A DNA stretch of 64,000 nt. It comes from an uncultured Lachnospiraceae bacterium. Lineage in GTDB: Bacteria; Bacillota; Clostridia; Christensenellales; UBA1242. Made by a program: the position numbers and the translations under genes. The notes beneath the pieces are model-generated. The model was not told where the DNA came from. It made no database searches and saw only the letters and a list, made by a program, of their open reading frames with translations. Numbering within the stretch: the first letter of the stretch is position 1; each line of letters begins with the position of its first letter. Positions 12,131 to 52,091 of the stretch are shown here, piece by piece. Location of the stretch: assembly GCA_964400145.1 (NCBI GenBank), contig CAYNTF010000003.1, positions 75,370 to 139,369 on the forward strand. The letters are read 5' to 3'.

Positions 12131-13453
12131 TCAAGCCACTTGGTCAAACTCGTCACCGTTTTCAAGGTCAATGTTGTCTTCGTCATCAAATGTTCCAGCG
12201 CCTTCAACAATCTTCTCGGTCAAATAGCCACCTTCACCTGTGTGCGCTCTTGTTGCGTCAACATAATTGCTGTCAAAGGCAACATCACCAACCAAACTTG
12301 TGCAGTTATAGAACATATTTGTGCTGTCAGTCACTCTTGCAGTTGACCAACCTGTTCCCACATAAATTACTGTAAGAGTCTGACAATTATAAAACATCCT
12401 ACCCATATTTGTCACTCTGCTGGTGTTCCAACTTGACAGGTCTAATTCAGAGAGCTTTAAACAACGATAAAACATCATTTCCATGTTAACAACATTTCTT
12501 GTGTTCCAATTTGAAACATCAACATTTGTCAAATTTGTGCAATTACAAAACATATACTGCATATATTCCGCATTGCTGGTGTTCCAATTTGAAACATCAA
12601 CAGTTTCAATCGGAGTGCTATAAAACATAGCAACAAAATATATCACATTGCTCACATCCCAATTTGCAACATTTATTTCTGCTAATGACTGGCAAGCTTC
12701 AAACATACTCTGCATTCTTATCACTCTACCTACATTCCACTTTGAAACATCAAGTGTGTTTAGCAAGGTGCAACTATAAAACATCCAACCCATGTTAGTC
12801 ACATTGCTCACATCCCATTCTGAAACATCAAGAGTTGTCAGCAATCCGCAGTTATAAAACATATAACTCATATCCGTCACTTTGCTTGTATCAAAGCCAG
12901 AAACATCAAGTGTTGTCAAAGAATCGCAACCATAGAACATATAACTCATGTTTGTAACATTCTTTGTGTTGAAATTGTTCAGAACAATTTCTTCAACGGA
13001 TGCAAAATTATAGAATGCATATGACATGTCAGCATTCACAACAATATCTTTGGTTGAAAGGATATAGATTGTTGTTTCGTCATTGTCTGTAACGCGGTAT
13101 AACCCAATTTGTGCGCCGTTCCAAACATAACTTTCCGCTTCTTGCCCTTCCAAAACATTCACTCCGTTTTCGGTGTATGTGTATTCGCCGTCTTCGGTTT
13201 GGGTATACTCACCACTTTCGTCTTTGTCATAATAATCAAAGACAATTCTTGTCACTGTTTCGTTTTCTTCTTGATAATTCTCGTTATTTTTCAGCAATGT
13301 GTTCAAGTCTTGTCCGCTTGTTATGTCTGTTTTCTCCCCGCTTGAAAGATAAATTGGAAGAAAGATTGCCAGAAACAGAACTGCCACCACTGCCACAACC
13401 GATGCCGTGATAATCGCCACCTTCTTCTTTTTGTTTGTTTCATTTTCAGCCAT
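12131..13453 (-). CDS. DUF285/BspA-like leucine-rich-repeat surface protein, N-terminal TM anchor (paralog 1)
   Basis: Repeated ~25-aa units of the form NVTNMSYMFYGCxSLTTLDVSxWDxS. KKKK followed by a hydrophobic anchor. AAGGAGGT RBS. Confidence 0.85.
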   Translation of the reverse strand: MAENETNKKKKVAIITASVVAVVAVLFLAIFLPIYLSSGEKTDITSGQDLNTLLKNNENYQEENETVTRIVFDYYDKDESGEYTQTEDGEYTYTENGVNVLEGQEAESYVWNGAQIGLYRVTDNDETTIYILSTKDIVVNADMSYAFYNFASVEEIVLNNFNTKNVTNMSYMFYGCDSLTTLDVSGFDTSKVTDMSYMFYNCGLLTTLDVSEWDVSNVTNMGWMFYSCTLLNTLDVSKWNVGRVIRMQSMFEACQSLAEINVANWDVSNVIYFVAMFYSTPIETVDVSNWNTSNAEYMQYMFCNCTNLTNVDVSNWNTRNVVNMEMMFYRCLKLSELDLSSWNTSRVTNMGRMFYNCQTLTVIYVGTGWSTARVTDSTNMFYNCTSLVGDVAFDSNYVDATRAHTGEGGYLTEKIVEGAGTFDDEDNIDLENGDEFDQVA

Positions 13454-44955: not shown

Positions 44956-46158
44956 TTATTCAATGATCGAAGAAACAACACCAGAACCAACTGTTCTGCC
45001 ACCTTCACGGATAGCGAAACGAAGTCCTTGTTCAATAGCGATTTCTTTGTTCAAAGTGATTGTCATTCTGACATTGTCACCTGGCATAACCATTTCAACG
45101 CCTTTTTCAAGTTCGATTGTTCCGGTTACATCAGTTGTTCTGAAATAGAATTGTGGTCTATATCCATTGAAGAATGGTGTGTGGCGCCCACCTTCTTCTT
45201 TCTTTAAAACATACACTTCGGCAGTGAATTTTGTGTGTGGGTGAATTGAGCCTGGCTTGCAAAGAACTTGTCCTCTTTCGATTTCTGTTCTTTGAATTCC
45301 ACGAAGAAGAATGCCGACATTGAATCCTGCGATACCTTCGTCAACAGTTTTTCTGAACATTTCAACGCCAGTTACAACTGTTTGCTTCTTTGCGCCCATA
45401 CCAACGATTTCAACAACATCGTTGATCTTAACCTTACCTCTTTCAATTCTTCCTGTTGCAACAGTTCCACGACCTGTGATTGTGAACACGTCTTCAACAG
45501 GCATAAGGAAAGGTTTGTCTGTATCTCTTTCTGGTTCTGGGATATAAGAATCCAAAGCGTCCAAAAGTTCTTGGATGCAAGTGCAAGATGGATCTGTTAC
45601 ATTTCCTGCTTGAGCAGCTTCCAAAGCTTTGAGAGCAGAACCTTTGATGATTGGAGTGTCATCCCCTGGGAATCCATATTCGCTCAAAAGTTCACGGATT
45701 TCCATTTCAACGAGGTCAAGAAGTTCTGGATCGTCAACTTGATCAGTTTTGTTCATGAACACAACGATGTATGGAACACCAACCTGTCTTGCAAGCAAGA
45801 TGTGTTCTCTTGTTTGAGGCATTGGACCATCAGTTGCGGCAACAACAAGGATGGCACCATCCATTTGAGCAGCACCTGTGATCATGTTCTTAACATAGTC
45901 GGCGTGTCCCGGGCAGTCAACGTGTGCATAGTGACGCTTGTCTGTTTGATACTCAACATGCGCTGTGTTGATTGTGATACCACGAGCCTTTTCTTCTGGC
46001 GCCTTATCAATTTCATCATATCTCATTTTTTGTGCATAACCCTTTGCAGCACTATACATAGTGATGGCAGCAGTGAGGGTTGTTTTACCGTGGTCAACGT
46101 GACCGATTGTGCCGACGTTAACGTGAGGTTTACTGTTATCATATTTACCTGTAGCCAT
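44956..46158 (-). CDS. tuf: Elongation factor Tu
   Basis: [14 protein letters not shown] and NKTD motifs; 400 aa. Confidence 0.98.
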
Positions 46159-46373: not shown

Positions 46374-48452
46374 TTATTTTGCTTCTTTCTTTCTCTGTCC
46401 AACGATGGTTTCTGCAATGTTCTTTGGAACTTCGGAATATTTCAAAAATTCCATTGTGAAAGTTCCGCGCCCCTGTGTTTGAGAACGAAGGTCGGTTGCA
46501 TAACCGAACATTTCTCCAAGTGGCACTTCGGCATTGACGATTTGAACGCCCGGTCTGGTTTCATTTCCTGTCAAGATTCCACGACGAGAAGTGAGATTGC
46601 CCATAACCGTTCCAAGATATTCGTCTGGAACTTCAACTTGCACTTTCATCACAGGTTCAAGAAGAACAGGATTTGCCTTCATTGCGCCGTCTTTAAACGC
46701 CATTGAACCGGCAATCTTGAACGCCATTTCGGAAGAGTCCACTTCGTGATATGACCCGTCGATGACAGTCACTTTGAAGTCAACAGTTTCATATCCAGCA
46801 ATGACACCATTCTTGCTTGCTTCTTGAATTCCGTTGTTGATTGGTTGGATGTATTCCTTTGGAATTGAACCACCAACGGTCTTGTCTTCAAATTGATAAC
46901 CCGTTCCTGCTGGCAATGGTTCGATGTCGATGATACAGTGACCGTATTGCCCCTTACCACCGCTTTGGCGGATGAACTTGCCTTCCGCTCTTGCAGGTTT
47001 GCGGATTGTTTCTTTGTATGCAACTTGTGGTTTGCCGACATTTGCTTCAACTTTGAATTCACGAAGAAGTCTGTCAACAATGATTTCAAGGTGAAGTTCG
47101 CCCATACCAGCGATGATTGTTTGACCTGTTTCTTGATCGGTGTATGTCTTGAAAGTTGGGTCTTCTTCTGCCAACTTGATGAGCGCAAGCACCATTTTTT
47201 CTTGCATAAGTTTGGTTTTTGGCTCGATTGACATGCTGATAACTGGGTCAGCGAAATCCATACTTTCCAACACGATTGGATGTTTTTCGTCGCAAAGAGT
47301 TTCACCTGTGATGGTGTCTTTCAAGCCGACGATGGCAGCGATGTCGCCCGCGCCAACTTCTTTGATTTCTTCTCTTTGGTTAGCGTGCATTCTGATAAGA
47401 CGACCAACACGCTCTTTTTCGCCCTTATTTGAGTTATAGACATAAGAACCAGCGGTCAATTTTCCAGAATATACGCGGAAGAATGCCAAACGCCCAACAA
47501 ATGGGTCTGTCATAATCTTGAACGCAAGTCCAGCAAGTGGAGCGTCTTCGCTTGGCGCTCTCGTTTCGGTTTCGCCAGTTTCTGGGTTTACGCCTTCAAT
47601 ATGGTCGATATCAAGTGGACTTGGAAGAAGTTCGACCATGGCGTCAAGGAGCATCTGAACGCCCTTGTTTTTGTATGAAGAACCGCAAAGCACAGGCACA
47701 ACAGCACGAGAAATTGTTGCTGCGCGAAGTGCTTTTTTAAGTTCGTCGATGGAGATTTCTTCTCCTTCAAAGAATTTTTCGAGCAAAGCATCATCTGTTT
47801 CAACAATCTTTTCAACCATTTCGTTGTGCATTTTTTCTGCTTTTGCCTTATATTCTTCTGGAATCTCAACGATATCAATCTTTGTTCCCAAGTCGTCTGC
47901 ATAGACTTCTGCTTTCATGGTCATAAGATCGATAATTCCGCTGAAAGTGTCCGCTTCGCCAATAGGCATTTGGATGGCAAGCGGATTTGTTTTCAATCTG
48001 TCTCTGATTGAGTCAATGCAACCATAGAAATCGGCAGCATCTCTGTCCATTTTGTTGACATAAATGATTGTTGGTACTTTATATTTTGACGATTGACGCC
48101 AAACTGTTTCTGTTTGAGGTTGAACTCTGTCGCGAGCAGAAAGCACAAGCACAGCACCATCAAGCACCTTCAAAGAGCGTTCAACTTCGACAGTGAAGTC
48201 CACGTGTCCCGGCGTGTCGATGATGTTGATTTTATGTCCTTTCCAATGGCAAGTTGTGCAGGCAGAAGTGATGGTGATTCCACGCTCTTGTTCTTGCGCC
48301 ATCCAGTCCATAGTGGCTTGACCGTCATGAACTTCACCGATTTTGTGATTTTTGCCGGTGTAGAACAAAATACGCTCTGTGGTTGTGGTTTTTCCTGCGT
48401 CAATGTGAGCCATAATGCCGACATTGCGCACCATAGTTAAATCGGTAACCAT
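46374..48452 (-). CDS. fusA: Elongation factor G
   Basis: [17 protein letters not shown] and NKMD motifs; 692 aa. Confidence 0.98.
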
Positions 48453-48472
48453 ATTTTTCTCCTTTTTAAAAT

Positions 48473-49033
48473 TTATTTGGTTTTTATACCATTATATTCA
48501 AGTATAGATTTGCTTTTACTTACATACTTATTATAATTATCCAAATATGTTCGTCCAAAAGCATTCGTCATCTCAGAAACAAAAGCATTTTGAGAAATCT
48601 CTTCTTGTTTTCGTTCTTCTTGAGAAGTTTGGAAATGTAAATTTCCTTTACTATCACTTTCCATAATAGGAAAATCTTGAGCAATCAAATTTTTATTCTG
48701 TTTATATGAACTATTAAGCAATAGATTTGTAAAGTGTAAATTATAATCGCTTATTGATACATAACCCACCTTCTGCTCTTCCATTGTTTTTTTGTTCAAT
48801 TTAATGATTTTTAACATTACTATTTTTTCATTTTTGCTGTAATCAACTCTTTTTATACATCCAGCAACTTTTTTATATTCATAATTCAAAATTTCATAGA
48901 ACATGCTGTCATACCATTCTTTTGGATAATGCATCTCCGTTGATTTTTTTGCAATATATTTAATATTGTCATCGTTTAGCAAGTCTAAATATCCATTGAT
49001 AAAATAATCTAAATGGTGATTTCTAACGGTCAT
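48473..49033 (-). CDS. Hypothetical 186-aa protein inserted between rpsG and fusA
   Basis: AAAGGAGAG 6 nt before the ATG; clean ORF. Much more AT-rich than its neighbours. No motif I recognise. Confidence 0.7.
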
Positions 49034-49209
49034 ATTTCTCTCCTTTAAAATTAATTCAAAAAAATTGCCTTATCTGTCAATTTGTATAGAATTATTGTCT
49101 TTAGAATGTGCTTTATGCCTATGAGTGTAGATTTTTTTGTAGTTTTTCTTTAACCTTTTGCTCGTGCAGCAAGTTGCCTTGCTTTTGCATCGCTATATGT
49201 TTTCATATA

Positions 49210-49683
49210 TTACCACTTATAGTGAGCGAACGCCTTGTTGGCTTCTGCCATTCTGTGCATTTCGTCGCGCTTTTTGATTGAAGCGCCTGTGTTGTTGTAT
49301 GCATCCATAAGTTCACCAGCAAGTTTTTCATTCATATTTCTCTCGCCTGTTCTCTTTCTTGCATTGTTGACAATCCAACGAATTGCAAGTGTTTGGCGTC
49401 TTTCTGGACGAATTTCCATAGGAACTTGGTATGTTGCACCGCCAACTCTGCGACCTTTTGTTTCAAGCATAGGCTTAACATTTTCAATCGCTGTCAGGCA
49501 GACATCAAGAGGTTCCAAACTTGTTTTTTCTTTTATAATGTCAAAAGAGCCATAAACAATTCTCTGTGCAAGACCTTTCTTTCCACTCATCATAATTTGA
49601 TTGATAAGTTTTGTGACAACTTTGTTTCCATAAATTGGGTCTGGCAAAACATCTCTTTTAACCGCACTATTTCTTCTTGGCAT
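49210..49683 (-). CDS. rpsG: 30S ribosomal protein S7
   Basis: [19 protein letters not shown]... Confidence 0.98.
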
Positions 49684-49817: not shown

Positions 49818-50198
49818 TTATTTTCCTGCTTTTGGTTTCTTTGCGCCATATTTTGAACGGCTTTGCTTTCTGTTTGCAACGCCAGCGGTGTCAAGAGTTC
49901 CGCGAATGATGTGATATCTCACACCTGGCAAGTCCTTAACACGCCCGCCACGAACAAGCACAACGCTGTGCTCTTGCAAATTGTGACCAATTCCAGGAAT
50001 GTAGCAAGTTCCTTCTTGATTGTTTGAAAGTTTCACTCTGGCAATCTTACGAAGCGCTGAGTTAGGCTTTTTTGGAGTGGCAGTTCTCACAGACAAGCAC
50101 ACGCCACGCTTTTGAGGGCACTCTTCAAGAAGTGGTGCTTTTTTCTTTTTTTCGAAAGATTTTCTTCCTTTTCTCACAAGTTGGTTGAATGTAGGCAT
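49818..50198 (-). CDS. rpsL: 30S ribosomal protein S12
   Basis: [12 protein letters not shown]...[10 protein letters not shown]... Confidence 0.98.
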
Positions 50199-50292: not shown

Positions 50293-50324
50293 AAAAACAA
50301 AAAAGGCACGATATATTTCGTGCC
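50293..50324 (-). terminator. Terminator/attenuator hairpin ~100 nt upstream of rpsL
   Basis: GGCACG-AAATATAT-CGTGCC then T6 on the minus strand. Confidence 0.55.
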
Positions 50325-50589
50325 ATGAAAAATGCTTTATCTTTCAAACATGAACAACACAATCACATTTCTGCGACTCCAAGAAAAACTTTCTTGAATC
50401 GGTGGAATTGGAATTTTTGCAACAGAACATCGTTTCAACCTATTATATAAGCGATAAGCCAAAACAAATCAAGATTGCACAAATTGTACCATTTTGGGCA
50501 CAGCCACCTGTTGTTTGTTTATGCTTAACCGTCAAGGTTTCCCCCGACAAATTCAAAGCATGGGTTTCCGACAACGAAACACATTTTGT

Positions 50590-50618
50590 ATTATAAACAT
50601 TTCGCCAATCGTTGTCAA
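50590..50618 (-). promoter_or_regulatory. Perfect consensus promoter TTGACA-17-TATAAT
   Basis: Spacing counted directly; ~385 nt upstream of the rpsL ATG. Confidence 0.65.
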
Positions 50619-50705: not shown

Positions 50706-52091
50706 TCAGTCATTGTCACCGTCAAGGTTGCCAGTGGCTTTTTCGCTGATGTCGGTCAAATAGCCATAAGCCTGCAACTCTTCTTTGTATCCAGCATAGG
50801 CGTATGTTTTGTTCGTGACACTTCCATTTTCAGTGAAATTTGGAAGAGATGTGCATCTAGAGAACATTGATGAATCAGTTTCAACCGCATCTGTTGACCA
50901 GCCTTCACCAACATAGATTGTTTCAAGGCTTGTGCAACCAGTGAACATACAATACATATTCGTCACTTTGCTGGTGTCAAAGCTTGAAATGTCTATTGAA
51001 GTCACATTTCCTAAACCTGCAAACATATATTCCATGTCTGTCACATCACTTGTGTTAAAATTCGACAAATCTAATTCTCCAGTTAAACCTGCCCAAGCAA
51101 ACATCCATTTCATATCTGTGGCACTGCTGGTGTTCCAATTTGAAAGAAAATCAATTCCTGTCAATTTAAAGCAGTTAAAAAACATACCATTAAATTCCTT
51201 CACATTGCTTACATCCCAATTTGATATATCACCAAAATTTGTTAACTTTTCACAAGTACCAAACATCCAACTCATGCTTGTCACACTGCTTACATCCCAA
51301 TTTGAAAGGTCAACTTCTTCCAAAGCGCTACAGCCACTGAACAAATTAAACATTTCTATCACATTGCTTGTATCCCACTTGGAAACATCAATAGTTGTCA
51401 AAGAACTGCAGTGGAGAAACAAAGACCCCATACTTGTCACATTACTCGTGTTCCAATTTGAAACATCAAGTTCGTCTAAAGATCTACAACCTGCAAACAT
51501 TGTCCACATGCTTGTCACATTGCTCACATCCCACTTGGAAACATCAAGCGTTGTCAAAGAACTGCAATTATAAAACATCCACCCCATATCTGTCACACTG
51601 CTTGTGTTGAAATTGTTGAAAGCAATCTCTTCAACGGATGTAAAATTATAGAATGAATATGATGCATCTTCATTTGCAACAATTTCTTCGGTTGAAAGGA
51701 TGTAGATTGTTGTGTCAACGCGATATAAGTCAATCTGTGTTTTGTTCCAAGTGTATGACTCCGCTGTTTGCCCTTCCAAAACATTTACATCATCTTCGGT
51801 GTAAGTATAGTTGCCATCCTCGGTTTGTGTATAGGCACCACTTTCGTCTTTGTCATAGTAGTCAAAAACAATTCTCTTCACTGTGGTGTCTTCCGCTGTG
51901 TAACTATCACTTTTTTTCAACAATGTGTTCAAAGTCGAACCGCTTGGCAAATTTGTGTTGTCTGTTTCACTTGATTTTTGAGTGAGATAGATTGGAAGAA
52001 AAATCGCCAGAAACAGAACCGCCACCACGCCTACAACTGACGCTGTGATGATTGCCACCTTTTTCTTTTTGTTTGTTTCATTTTCAGCCAT
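50706..52091 (-). CDS. DUF285/BspA-like leucine-rich-repeat surface protein (paralog 2)
   Basis: The same N-terminal ~170 aa as paralog 1 (MAENETNKKKKVAIITASVV...); divergent repeats of the form SVTDMGWMFYNCSSLTTLDVSKWDVSNVT. Confidence 0.85.
   Translation of the reverse strand: MAENETNKKKKVAIITASVVGVVAVLFLAIFLPIYLTQKSSETDNTNLPSGSTLNTLLKKSDSYTAEDTTVKRIVFDYYDKDESGAYTQTEDGNYTYTEDDVNVLEGQTAESYTWNKTQIDLYRVDTTIYILSTEEIVANEDASYSFYNFTSVEEIAFNNFNTSSVTDMGWMFYNCSSLTTLDVSKWDVSNVTSMWTMFAGCRSLDELDVSNWNTSNVTSMGSLFLHCSSLTTIDVSKWDTSNVIEMFNLFSGCSALEEVDLSNWDVSSVTSMSWMFGTCEKLTNFGDISNWDVSNVKEFNGMFFNCFKLTGIDFLSNWNTSSATDMKWMFAWAGLTGELDLSNFNTSDVTDMEYMFAGLGNVTSIDISSFDTSKVTNMYCMFTGCTSLETIYVGEGWSTDAVETDSSMFSRCTSLPNFTENGSVTNKTYAYAGYKEELQAYGYLTDISEKATGNLDGDND

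Follow-up and report, generated by a model that had tools for sequence, protein, structure and literature searches.

In the 64,000-nt stretch of DNA analyzed here (the window; contig CAYNTF010000003.1 of an uncultured Lachnospiraceae bacterium), we found that the str operon carries between rpsG and fusA a 186-amino-acid (aa) gene, which we call gene X. From comparison with related loci, X is an optional, strain-variable, and dispensable accessory gene, with alleles exchanged by homologous recombination in the conserved flanking genes. The order rpsL-rpsG-fusA-tuf is treated as near invariant, and the genes inside it are assumed to be core. At this junction, an optional gene is exchanged at the level of strains, with alleles 38-54% identical and EF-G 97-99.7% identical. 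The best explanation overall, to which we give about half of our confidence, is that X belongs to an exchangeable accessory cassette in the str operon and that its product acts on the translation apparatus.

The rpsG-fusA gap spans 757 bp in all (48453-49209), of which the open reading frame (ORF) of X takes 561 bp (Table 1), and the str genes run in the order rpsL, rpsG, X, fusA, tuf, all on the minus strand. By our own calculation, an open frame of 186 codons would occur by chance with p ~6e-8, given that stops make up ~8.5% of random triplets at the G+C content (GC) of X. The ATG of X is preceded by the Shine-Dalgarno sequence AAAGGAGAG, and the same "aaaggaga" type of start region is found at rpsL, rpsG, fusA, and tuf. 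A consensus scan of the minus strand found no terminator-like site between rpsG and fusA; good sites of this kind lie only upstream of rpsL (50324-50305) and after tuf (44911-44875, a long hairpin). A preliminary description of this DNA, made from its letters alone, had reported a 186-aa ORF in a gap of ~750 bp, with a strong ribosome-binding site (RBS), on the same strand as its neighbors and with no convincing terminator before fusA, and each of these points held. Its proposal of co-transcription with the str genes is plausible, as no terminator intervenes and only 20 nt separate X from fusA. We therefore consider it probable that read-through from the str promoter yields the X transcript and that X uses its own strong RBS for translation, in which case it would be made whenever S7, EF-G, and EF-Tu are made.

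X is a real protein-coding gene of a small orphan family, as judged from conserved alignment columns, in-frame indels, ratios of nonsynonymous to synonymous substitution rates (dN/dS) below 1, and two concordant AlphaFold2 models. A search of 5.8 billion protein clusters returned 15 relatives at 52-100% identity, and scanning 1.84 billion cluster representatives exhaustively with HMMER gave six further ones at ~25-44% identity. After a profile search the relatives totaled 24, and the family as a whole comprises ~30 sequences among the billions searched. Seven invariant and 13 nearly invariant columns are kept even in the most divergent alignment set, and indels remain in frame. The dN/dS of X was 0.16-0.42 in all informative pairs (0.27-0.42 in close pairs) and below 1 throughout. 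For the neighboring S12, S7, EF-G, and EF-Tu, the ratio was 0.01-0.10 in the same genome pairs, so that the value for X is 3-40 times higher. AlphaFold2 modeled X with a predicted local distance difference test score of 89 and a predicted template-modeling (TM) score of 0.82 from only 11 aligned sequences. A second model, of a member 29% identical to X, reached 79 and 0.76 with the same order of elements. In the predicted topology, helices at the N terminus lead into an antiparallel sheet with six to eight strands, and two long helices follow at the C terminus. Residues of a structural kind (aromatic, Gly, Pro) make up most of the invariant positions, joined by one Asp and one Asn, with no conserved Cys or His, and the isoelectric point (pI) varies from 4.9 to 9.5 across the family; we infer from these features that X is more likely to bind a partner than to catalyze a reaction. 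No paralogue of X was found elsewhere in the window.

The family has no recognizable relative in the collections that we searched. Pfam and NCBIfam returned nothing credible for X or for 11 family members, and weak matches to SH3b_T and GxGYxYP fell below threshold and were not common to other members. PDB sequences were matched by X neither as a single sequence nor as a profile. In Foldseek searches of both AlphaFold2 models against PDB, and of the first also against BFVD, there was no match with E <0.04, and TM was at most 0.29. A helix, a long antiparallel sheet, and two helices might recall p32/Mam33 or Aha1, but we regard this likeness as superficial since the Foldseek matches to 3rpx and 3n72 were noise (E 0.2-0.5, TM ~0.2). 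Both models leaned, below threshold, toward GNAT/MYST acetyltransferase cores (E 0.3-1, TM 0.2-0.25). We rejected X as a GNAT acetyltransferase because these scores do not rise above noise, the acetyltransferase families of Pfam are not matched, and the CoA-binding motif A (Q/R-x-x-G-x-G/A) is missing; the sole invariant Gly of X belongs to the beta-strand segment K-[IV]-G-Y-V. These results agree with the preliminary description, which saw no recognizable motif in the protein and proposed homology searches and structure prediction; what emerged is an orphan family with a confidently predicted fold and no match in Pfam, PDB, or BFVD. In the papers returned by a full-text literature search, judged mostly at the level of titles and abstracts, no gene between rpsG and fusA is described, and PMC1924603 likewise describes none.

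Down to ~30% identity, all X homologues with a readable upstream flank but one lie between rpsG and fusA. This position is shared by the 83% and 78-91% relatives (L001-L004, L009, L010), the 54% group (L005-L008, L020, L038), and the members at 25-44% (L013, L014-L016, L017, L018). In L011, a 1.6-kb metagenomic contig, positions 1-453 hold the 3′ end of rpoB with its acidic tail, which precedes X, and fusA follows directly after X; either the operon is arranged differently there or the assembly is chimeric. The hosts are labeled only "uncultured Lachnospiraceae bacterium" and "uncultured Clostridia bacterium", and a scan of Joint Genome Institute (JGI) metagenomes added a single X locus (L020, type B with the gene Y described below), showing that the family is rare there. 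On these data, the X family appears to be endemic to one clade of uncultured Clostridia.

Relatives of the window were sampled through S7, independently of X. Across 42 loci, the rpsG-fusA gap ranged from 201 to 1120 bp and showed five content states: empty except for a small ORF (sORF) of ~50 aa; X of allele type A; X of type B together with Y, a gene of 100 aa; X of type C; and several hundred bp of AT-rich non-coding DNA. X-positive loci in this set were fetched by X search, so the proportions of these states are not frequencies. The S7 sequence P0054 differs by one residue from the S7 of the carrier L001, and nine of the ten places listed for it have a gap of ~200 bp with only an sORF of 47-52 aa. 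The remaining place (L038) has a 197-aa type-B X, an allele 51-54% identical, followed by the 100-aa Y as a second small gene. In L033 and L036, both empty, EF-G has 99.7% identity with that of the carrier L001. Where S7 is 95% identical to that of the window (P0041, L021-L030), the gap is 571-846 bp long at 23% GC, with no called gene and a length that varies between strains; where S7 is 85% identical (P0109, L041-L047), it is 338 bp at 22% GC and without a gene. X is thus absent or swapped in the closest relatives, and genomes with near-identical S7 and EF-G lack it or carry another allele, which agrees with the preliminary description in treating X as an optional insert rather than a fixed, clade-wide component of the operon and answers its call for a presence/absence comparison.

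This distribution leaves little room for a reading of X as a housekeeping protein of the whole clade, native and vertically inherited, that serves as a translation factor or as an accessory of the ribosome. The same str position in many lineages, the strong RBS, and the 20-nt distance to fusA would all suit such a factor. Yet nine of the ten listed places with a near-carrier S7 lack X, although EF-G is 99.7% identical in two of them, and two related species lack it as well. The allele tree of X also conflicts with that of the flanking genes, and its dN/dS exceeds that of the neighbors by the factor of 3-40 given above. We find this reading scarcely credible. Bacillus subtilis ybxF (rplGB) is an example of a lineage-specific, co-expressed gene of the str cluster: it is non-essential, encodes an L7Ae-like protein, and lies between rpoC and rpsL, but it is conserved and not known to be strain-variable. 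YbxF has the known L7Ae fold and is encoded upstream of rpsL, whereas X matches no Pfam family.

The gene Y shares the rpsG-fusA gap with X and forms a family of 100-104 aa (L005 6644-6946, L038 4118-4420, L018 693-1007) in which the 100-aa and 104-aa proteins are homologous (29% identical, E 3e-11). Y follows X in type-B loci and precedes it in L018, and it is confined to these loci; X stands alone in the window and in every type-A and type-C locus. As X mostly lacks a partner gene, we rejected a type II toxin-antitoxin pair. That Y is a truncated X paralogue was not established, as only a 23-residue C-terminal motif (FG-x-EY) aligns (hhalign E 4.6e-4, probability 33%). No mobile-element gene was found in the gap: the loci examined hold only X, Y, the sORF, or an unrelated 103-aa ORF, all without a Pfam match.

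Exchange of the cassette by recombination is indicated by two kinds of evidence, namely disagreement between allele and flank relationships, and identical tracts that cross the junction. Between the window and L001, nucleotide identity is 79-86% in the flanks and 88% in X, and synonymous divergence (dS) is 0.8-1.7 and 0.35, respectively. Between L001 and L005, the disagreement runs in the other direction: the flanks are 87-93% identical and EF-G is 97% identical in amino acids, whereas X has only 64% nucleotide and 51% amino acid identity with a dS of 2.4, and an extra gene is present. L001 and L014 have flanks 81-86% identical and X 60% identical in nucleotides, and the L014 allele is 38% (tblastn) or 42% (global alignment) identical to the window X in amino acids. 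A run of 1245 nt is fully identical between the window and L009 against a background identity of ~90%; it takes in the 3′ end of rpsL, all of rpsG and the spacer behind it, as well as 314 nt at the start of X, inside which it stops. We read this tract as the footprint of a very recent recombination event. Taken together, these comparisons indicate that X alleles are moved, replaced, and deleted through homologous recombination in conserved flanks, with no mobile-element machinery. The gap accordingly behaves as an accessory slot for one or two genes, with contents swapped through recombination in the flanks.

In many relatives, the sORF starts 4-6 nt after the rpsG stop. This sORF encodes a small basic protein (47-57 aa, pI ~9.5, motif KK[IL]YA.RH) with no Pfam match, and intact copies occur whether or not a locus is occupied (for example, L001 5813-5974, L031 3478-3636, L032 3480-3638, and L014 1006-1179). 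Its start close behind the rpsG stop and the lack of an RBS of its own suggest that it may be translationally coupled to rpsG. In the window and L009, it is broken by a 26-nt deletion and a 1-nt insertion relative to L001, L003, L010, and L031, leaving a stump of 18 codons, and its hidden Markov model (HMM) score is 23 bits in the window compared with 36-95 bits where it is intact. If the segment running from the X RBS to just before the X stop is removed from the occupied L001, the empty type-A site L031 remains. In type-B X, the opening ~15 codons are those of a small ORF (sORF-B, MRSKLMKGY...), of which empty type-B sites have an intact copy. This is a sign of a real insertion and implies that an X-Y cassette entered sORF-B and replaced its 3′ part.

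The preliminary description had also proposed looking for a target-site duplication at the insert borders. No terminal inverted repeats surround X, and the sole flanking direct repeat is a 25-nt copy of the start region, 80% identical between the starts of fusA and X (20/20 nt are shared between the two start regions in L001). It resembles the "taaaaggaga...ATG" start consensus of every gene in the operon and may reflect only that, so we did not count it as a target-site duplication.

We next turn to composition, since the preliminary description had called the ORF foreign-looking on the basis of its low GC. Part of this stood: the GC of X (0.265) is the lowest of 53 window ORFs of at least 120 aa (mean 0.380, SD 0.042), well below fusA (0.446) and tuf (0.431). 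The contrast was overstated, however, as the GC of both fusA and tuf exceeds the genome average. A PNPOx-like gene (PF01243; 58503-58877, minus strand) has a GC of 0.266, about equal to that of X, so very low GC also occurs in ordinary genes of the same genome. X homologues are AT-rich in every host (GC 0.22-0.32 compared with 0.37-0.42 for S7), and low GC is thus a trait of the family. For its amino acids under genome-average codon choice, X has an expected GC of 0.323, lower than that of any other among 50 genes; its actual GC falls 0.058 below this, the second largest deficit, and about half of the GC shortfall comes from amino acid composition. Codon adaptation to the S12/S7/EF-G/EF-Tu set is unremarkable (0.50, rank 13 of 50). 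Because the family is found only in the clade, its members are AT-rich in all hosts, and codon adaptation is mid-range, a recent import from a distant donor is unsupported; nor did we find a phage or plasmid homologue. The composition fits a fast-evolving accessory gene resident in the clade rather than a recent arrival from a compositionally different donor.

The AT-rich spacers of X-less lineages raise another origin, in which X arose de novo or by heavy remodeling from the long rpsG-fusA spacer of the clade. These non-coding spacers (338-846 bp, 22-23% GC) are near X in GC, and X has no homologue outside the clade. They have no detectable similarity to X, though: the family HMM scored at most 2.2 bits on those of the P0041 species, against up to 7 bits for shuffled controls. 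The family is also old, with members down to ~25-30% identity, and has a complex, confidently predicted multi-strand fold, all of which makes a de novo origin very unlikely. The same HMM scores, with one marginal tblastn match (E 0.04), led us to reject a decayed X pseudogene in the 571-846-bp gaps.

Bacterial orphan genes are short, AT-rich, fast-evolving, and lineage-specific, and X resembles them in its 186 aa, the lowest GC of the window, a dN/dS several-fold above its neighbors, and the absence of homologues outside a narrow clade. Short, AT-rich, fast-evolving, narrowly distributed, and often lost, as X is, are reportedly the classic traits of such genes as set out by Daubin and Ochman in 2004. 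They would suit a selfish or near-neutral passenger, an orphan of forgotten mobile-element origin that confers no host benefit and persists because read-through does no harm and recombination keeps reshuffling it. X departs from this picture in its confidently predicted fold, which appears to be kept at 29% identity, in its long-term residence at a single locus, and in having no detectable phage link. Its dN/dS is clearly below 1 in every comparison, close pairs included, 13-14 invariant or near-invariant columns are retained family-wide, and it has been held at the locus long enough for divergence to ~30% identity. A passenger is therefore an improbable account of X.

A somewhat less remote alternative, though still an unlikely one, is that X is a conflict gene unrelated to translation, such as an anti-phage defense, orphan immunity, or anti-toxin gene, that uses the str operon as a constitutive, recombining site. 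X is polymorphic for presence, has deeply diverged alleles that coexist, and evolves under purifying though relaxed selection; it is also AT-rich and sometimes accompanied by the second small gene Y in variable order. These traits are typical of hotspot cargo (PMC5635113). On the other hand, PADLOC defense models matched neither X nor any of the 16 family members searched. PHROGs gave nothing for X itself; the only repeated match in the family was to phrog_30141 (function unknown; E 0.004-0.07), which we treated as noise because it was confined to type-B sequences that are near-identical to one another, and other weak matches were no better than chance. No phage, plasmid, or viral homologue of X was found in INPHARED (tblastn), PLSDB, or IMG/VR. 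X is also single in the window, with no neighboring defense genes and no toxin gene nearby, and the family is tied to one junction, whereas defense and immunity genes usually occur in several genomic contexts.

We favor instead a link to translation. The position of X is kept in members diverged to ~30% identity, its pairing with fusA persists in L011 despite a different upstream gene, its production would be coupled to that of the translation factors, and its optional, polymorphic distribution resembles that of target-protection and immunity genes. By analogy with such genes, the product may be an alpha/beta protein of the cytoplasm that has no enzymatic activity and binds EF-G or the ribosome, a specific assignment that we put forward tentatively and hold to be rather doubtful. 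X could then be an optional factor that protects or modulates translation when an antibiotic, a toxin from other bacteria, or a phage factor is aimed at it; interbacterial toxins that hit translation factors do exist, as an Rhs toxin ADP-ribosylates EF-Tu (PMC9825190). A more ambitious version, in which the junction is a dedicated, recombination-exchanged slot for a new class of translation-guarding proteins that have a new fold, protect or retune EF-G or the ribosome against threats such as a natural product, and keep alleles A, B, and C, with or without Y, under diversifying selection, strikes us as unlikely at present.

Several observations weigh against a role in translation. EF-G is 99.7% identical with and without X, so the two do not co-vary, and X is plainly dispensable. 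The fixed position can be explained by spread through conserved-flank recombination alone, with no functional link. In addition, the 1.6-kb contig L011 could be chimeric, and in L019 (P0021, the most distant member, on a 939-bp contig), the upstream ORF is not S7 and the contig ends before the downstream gene. The fold search was confined to PDB and BFVD.

Genes of the fusB type offer the closest parallel in logic, although they lie on plasmids or islands and are not known to adjoin fusA. FusB is a small accessory protein that rescues EF-G (PMC3352095; PMC12008383), and its structure combines a four-helix bundle with an alpha/beta domain bearing a C4 zinc finger (PMC3352095). Like FusB and FusC, X is ~200 aa long, cytoplasmic, optional, and strain-variable, and its link to EF-G is a proposal by analogy. 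Unlike FusB, X members have 0-4 Cys each, none of them conserved, and the alignments contain no Cys column. No Pfam, NCBIfam, or PDB sequence match placed X in the FusB/FBP family, and neither FusB nor FusC was among the best 50 Foldseek matches of either model. X might thus follow the logic of FusB-type target protection without FusB homology.

As a genomic site, the X slot behaves like the transfer hotspots described by Oliveira, Touchon, Cury, and Rocha in 2017, which are flanked by core genes and occur without mobile elements (PMC5635113). In both cases, the same core genes flank the site in all genomes, content turns over fast, integrases and transposases are absent, and flanks recombine. 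For the X slot, this is seen in constant S7-EF-G flanks with five states over the 42 loci, and in flank recombination evident from the 1245-nt tract and the incongruent dS values. The likeness is one of behavior. The slot differs from such hotspots in lying inside an essential, very highly expressed translation operon, in holding one or two genes only, and in drawing its cargo from one or two families found nowhere else. The isogenic-like empty and occupied loci form a natural system for studying how accessory genes are tolerated inside essential operons, and they also serve to ask what role is played by a protein of unmatched fold made alongside EF-G. If X does act on EF-G or the ribosome, gut anaerobes would have yielded a translation-protection factor of a new kind; if X is not linked to translation, it would be a caution against inferring function from operon context.

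Table 1. Features of the str locus in the window, in order of position
Feature	Position	Strand	Basis or remark
tuf (EF-Tu), last operon gene	44956-46158	-	ORF list
fusA (EF-G), downstream flank of slot	46374-48452	-	ORF list; EF-G Pfam domains in homologous loci
X-fusA spacer, 20 nt, contains fusA RBS	48453-48472	-	Near-identical in occupied and empty loci
25-nt direct repeat, copy 1, fusA start region	48453-48477		Repeat search, family D1
Gene X, 186 aa, soluble, allele type A, strain-variable cassette gene	48473-49033	-	ORF, ATG start
1245-nt run, 100% identical to L009 (metagenome-assembled genome contig CAZQMZ010000002.1)	48720-49964		Background ~90% identity
25-nt direct repeat, copy 2, X start region	49032-49056		80% identical to copy 1
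rpsG-X spacer, 176 bp, contains broken sORF remnant	49034-49209	-	Alignment with relatives
X Shine-Dalgarno AAAGGAGAG, 4 nt 5′ of ATG	49038-49046	-	Read from sequence
sORF stump, 18 codons (MKTYSDAKARQLAARAKG, then stop), starts four nt after rpsG stop	49150-49206	-	Translation
rpsG (ribosomal protein S7), upstream flank of slot	49210-49683	-	ORF list; Pfam S7 in homologous loci
rpsL (S12), first operon gene	49818-50198	-	ORF list
Sigma-70 promoter TTGACA, 17 nt, TATAAT, likely operon promoter	50590-50618	-	Consensus scan, 12/12 consensus matches

Some further features of the operon were seen in the same scans. A promoter-like site (TGGACG, 16 nt, TATAAT; 10/12 matches) lies at 48530-48557 on the minus strand, inside the 3′ end of X and ~80 nt before the fusA start, and may be an internal promoter through which the cassette serves fusA. 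In the leader (50305-50618, minus strand), a GC-rich hairpin followed by a T-run lies ~265 nt after the sigma-70 promoter and ~105 nt before the rpsL ATG; it could be part of an attenuating leader or a small RNA. A structured RNA of a known family in the gap or the leader was rejected, as Rfam returned nothing at gathering thresholds for either and only noise at E up to 1.

In the X-less species, the non-coding gaps differ between strains of the P0041 species, with lengths of 571, 652, 763, and 845 bp (L021-L030 3975-4820; for the P0109 species, L041-L047 3475-3812). These species also contain a three-hairpin element of ~90 nt (CTTTTCTA..TAGAAAAG, GGGGAGTTTCGATTCTCCCC, CTTACTTT..AAGTAAG) after rpsL and again after rpsG (L021 3140-3230 and 3988-4075; L041 3480-3570). 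It is absent from the window, is conserved between the species with S7 95% and 85% identical to that of the window, and could be a repetitive extragenic palindromic (REP)-like repeat or a regulatory RNA. Lastly, the gene directly upstream of the str operon (50706-52091, minus strand) encodes a DUF285/LRR surface protein (PF03382, E 3.5e-59) with a paralogue at 12131-13453 (minus strand), and the two share an identical 20-residue N-terminus (MAENETNKKKKVAIITASVV).

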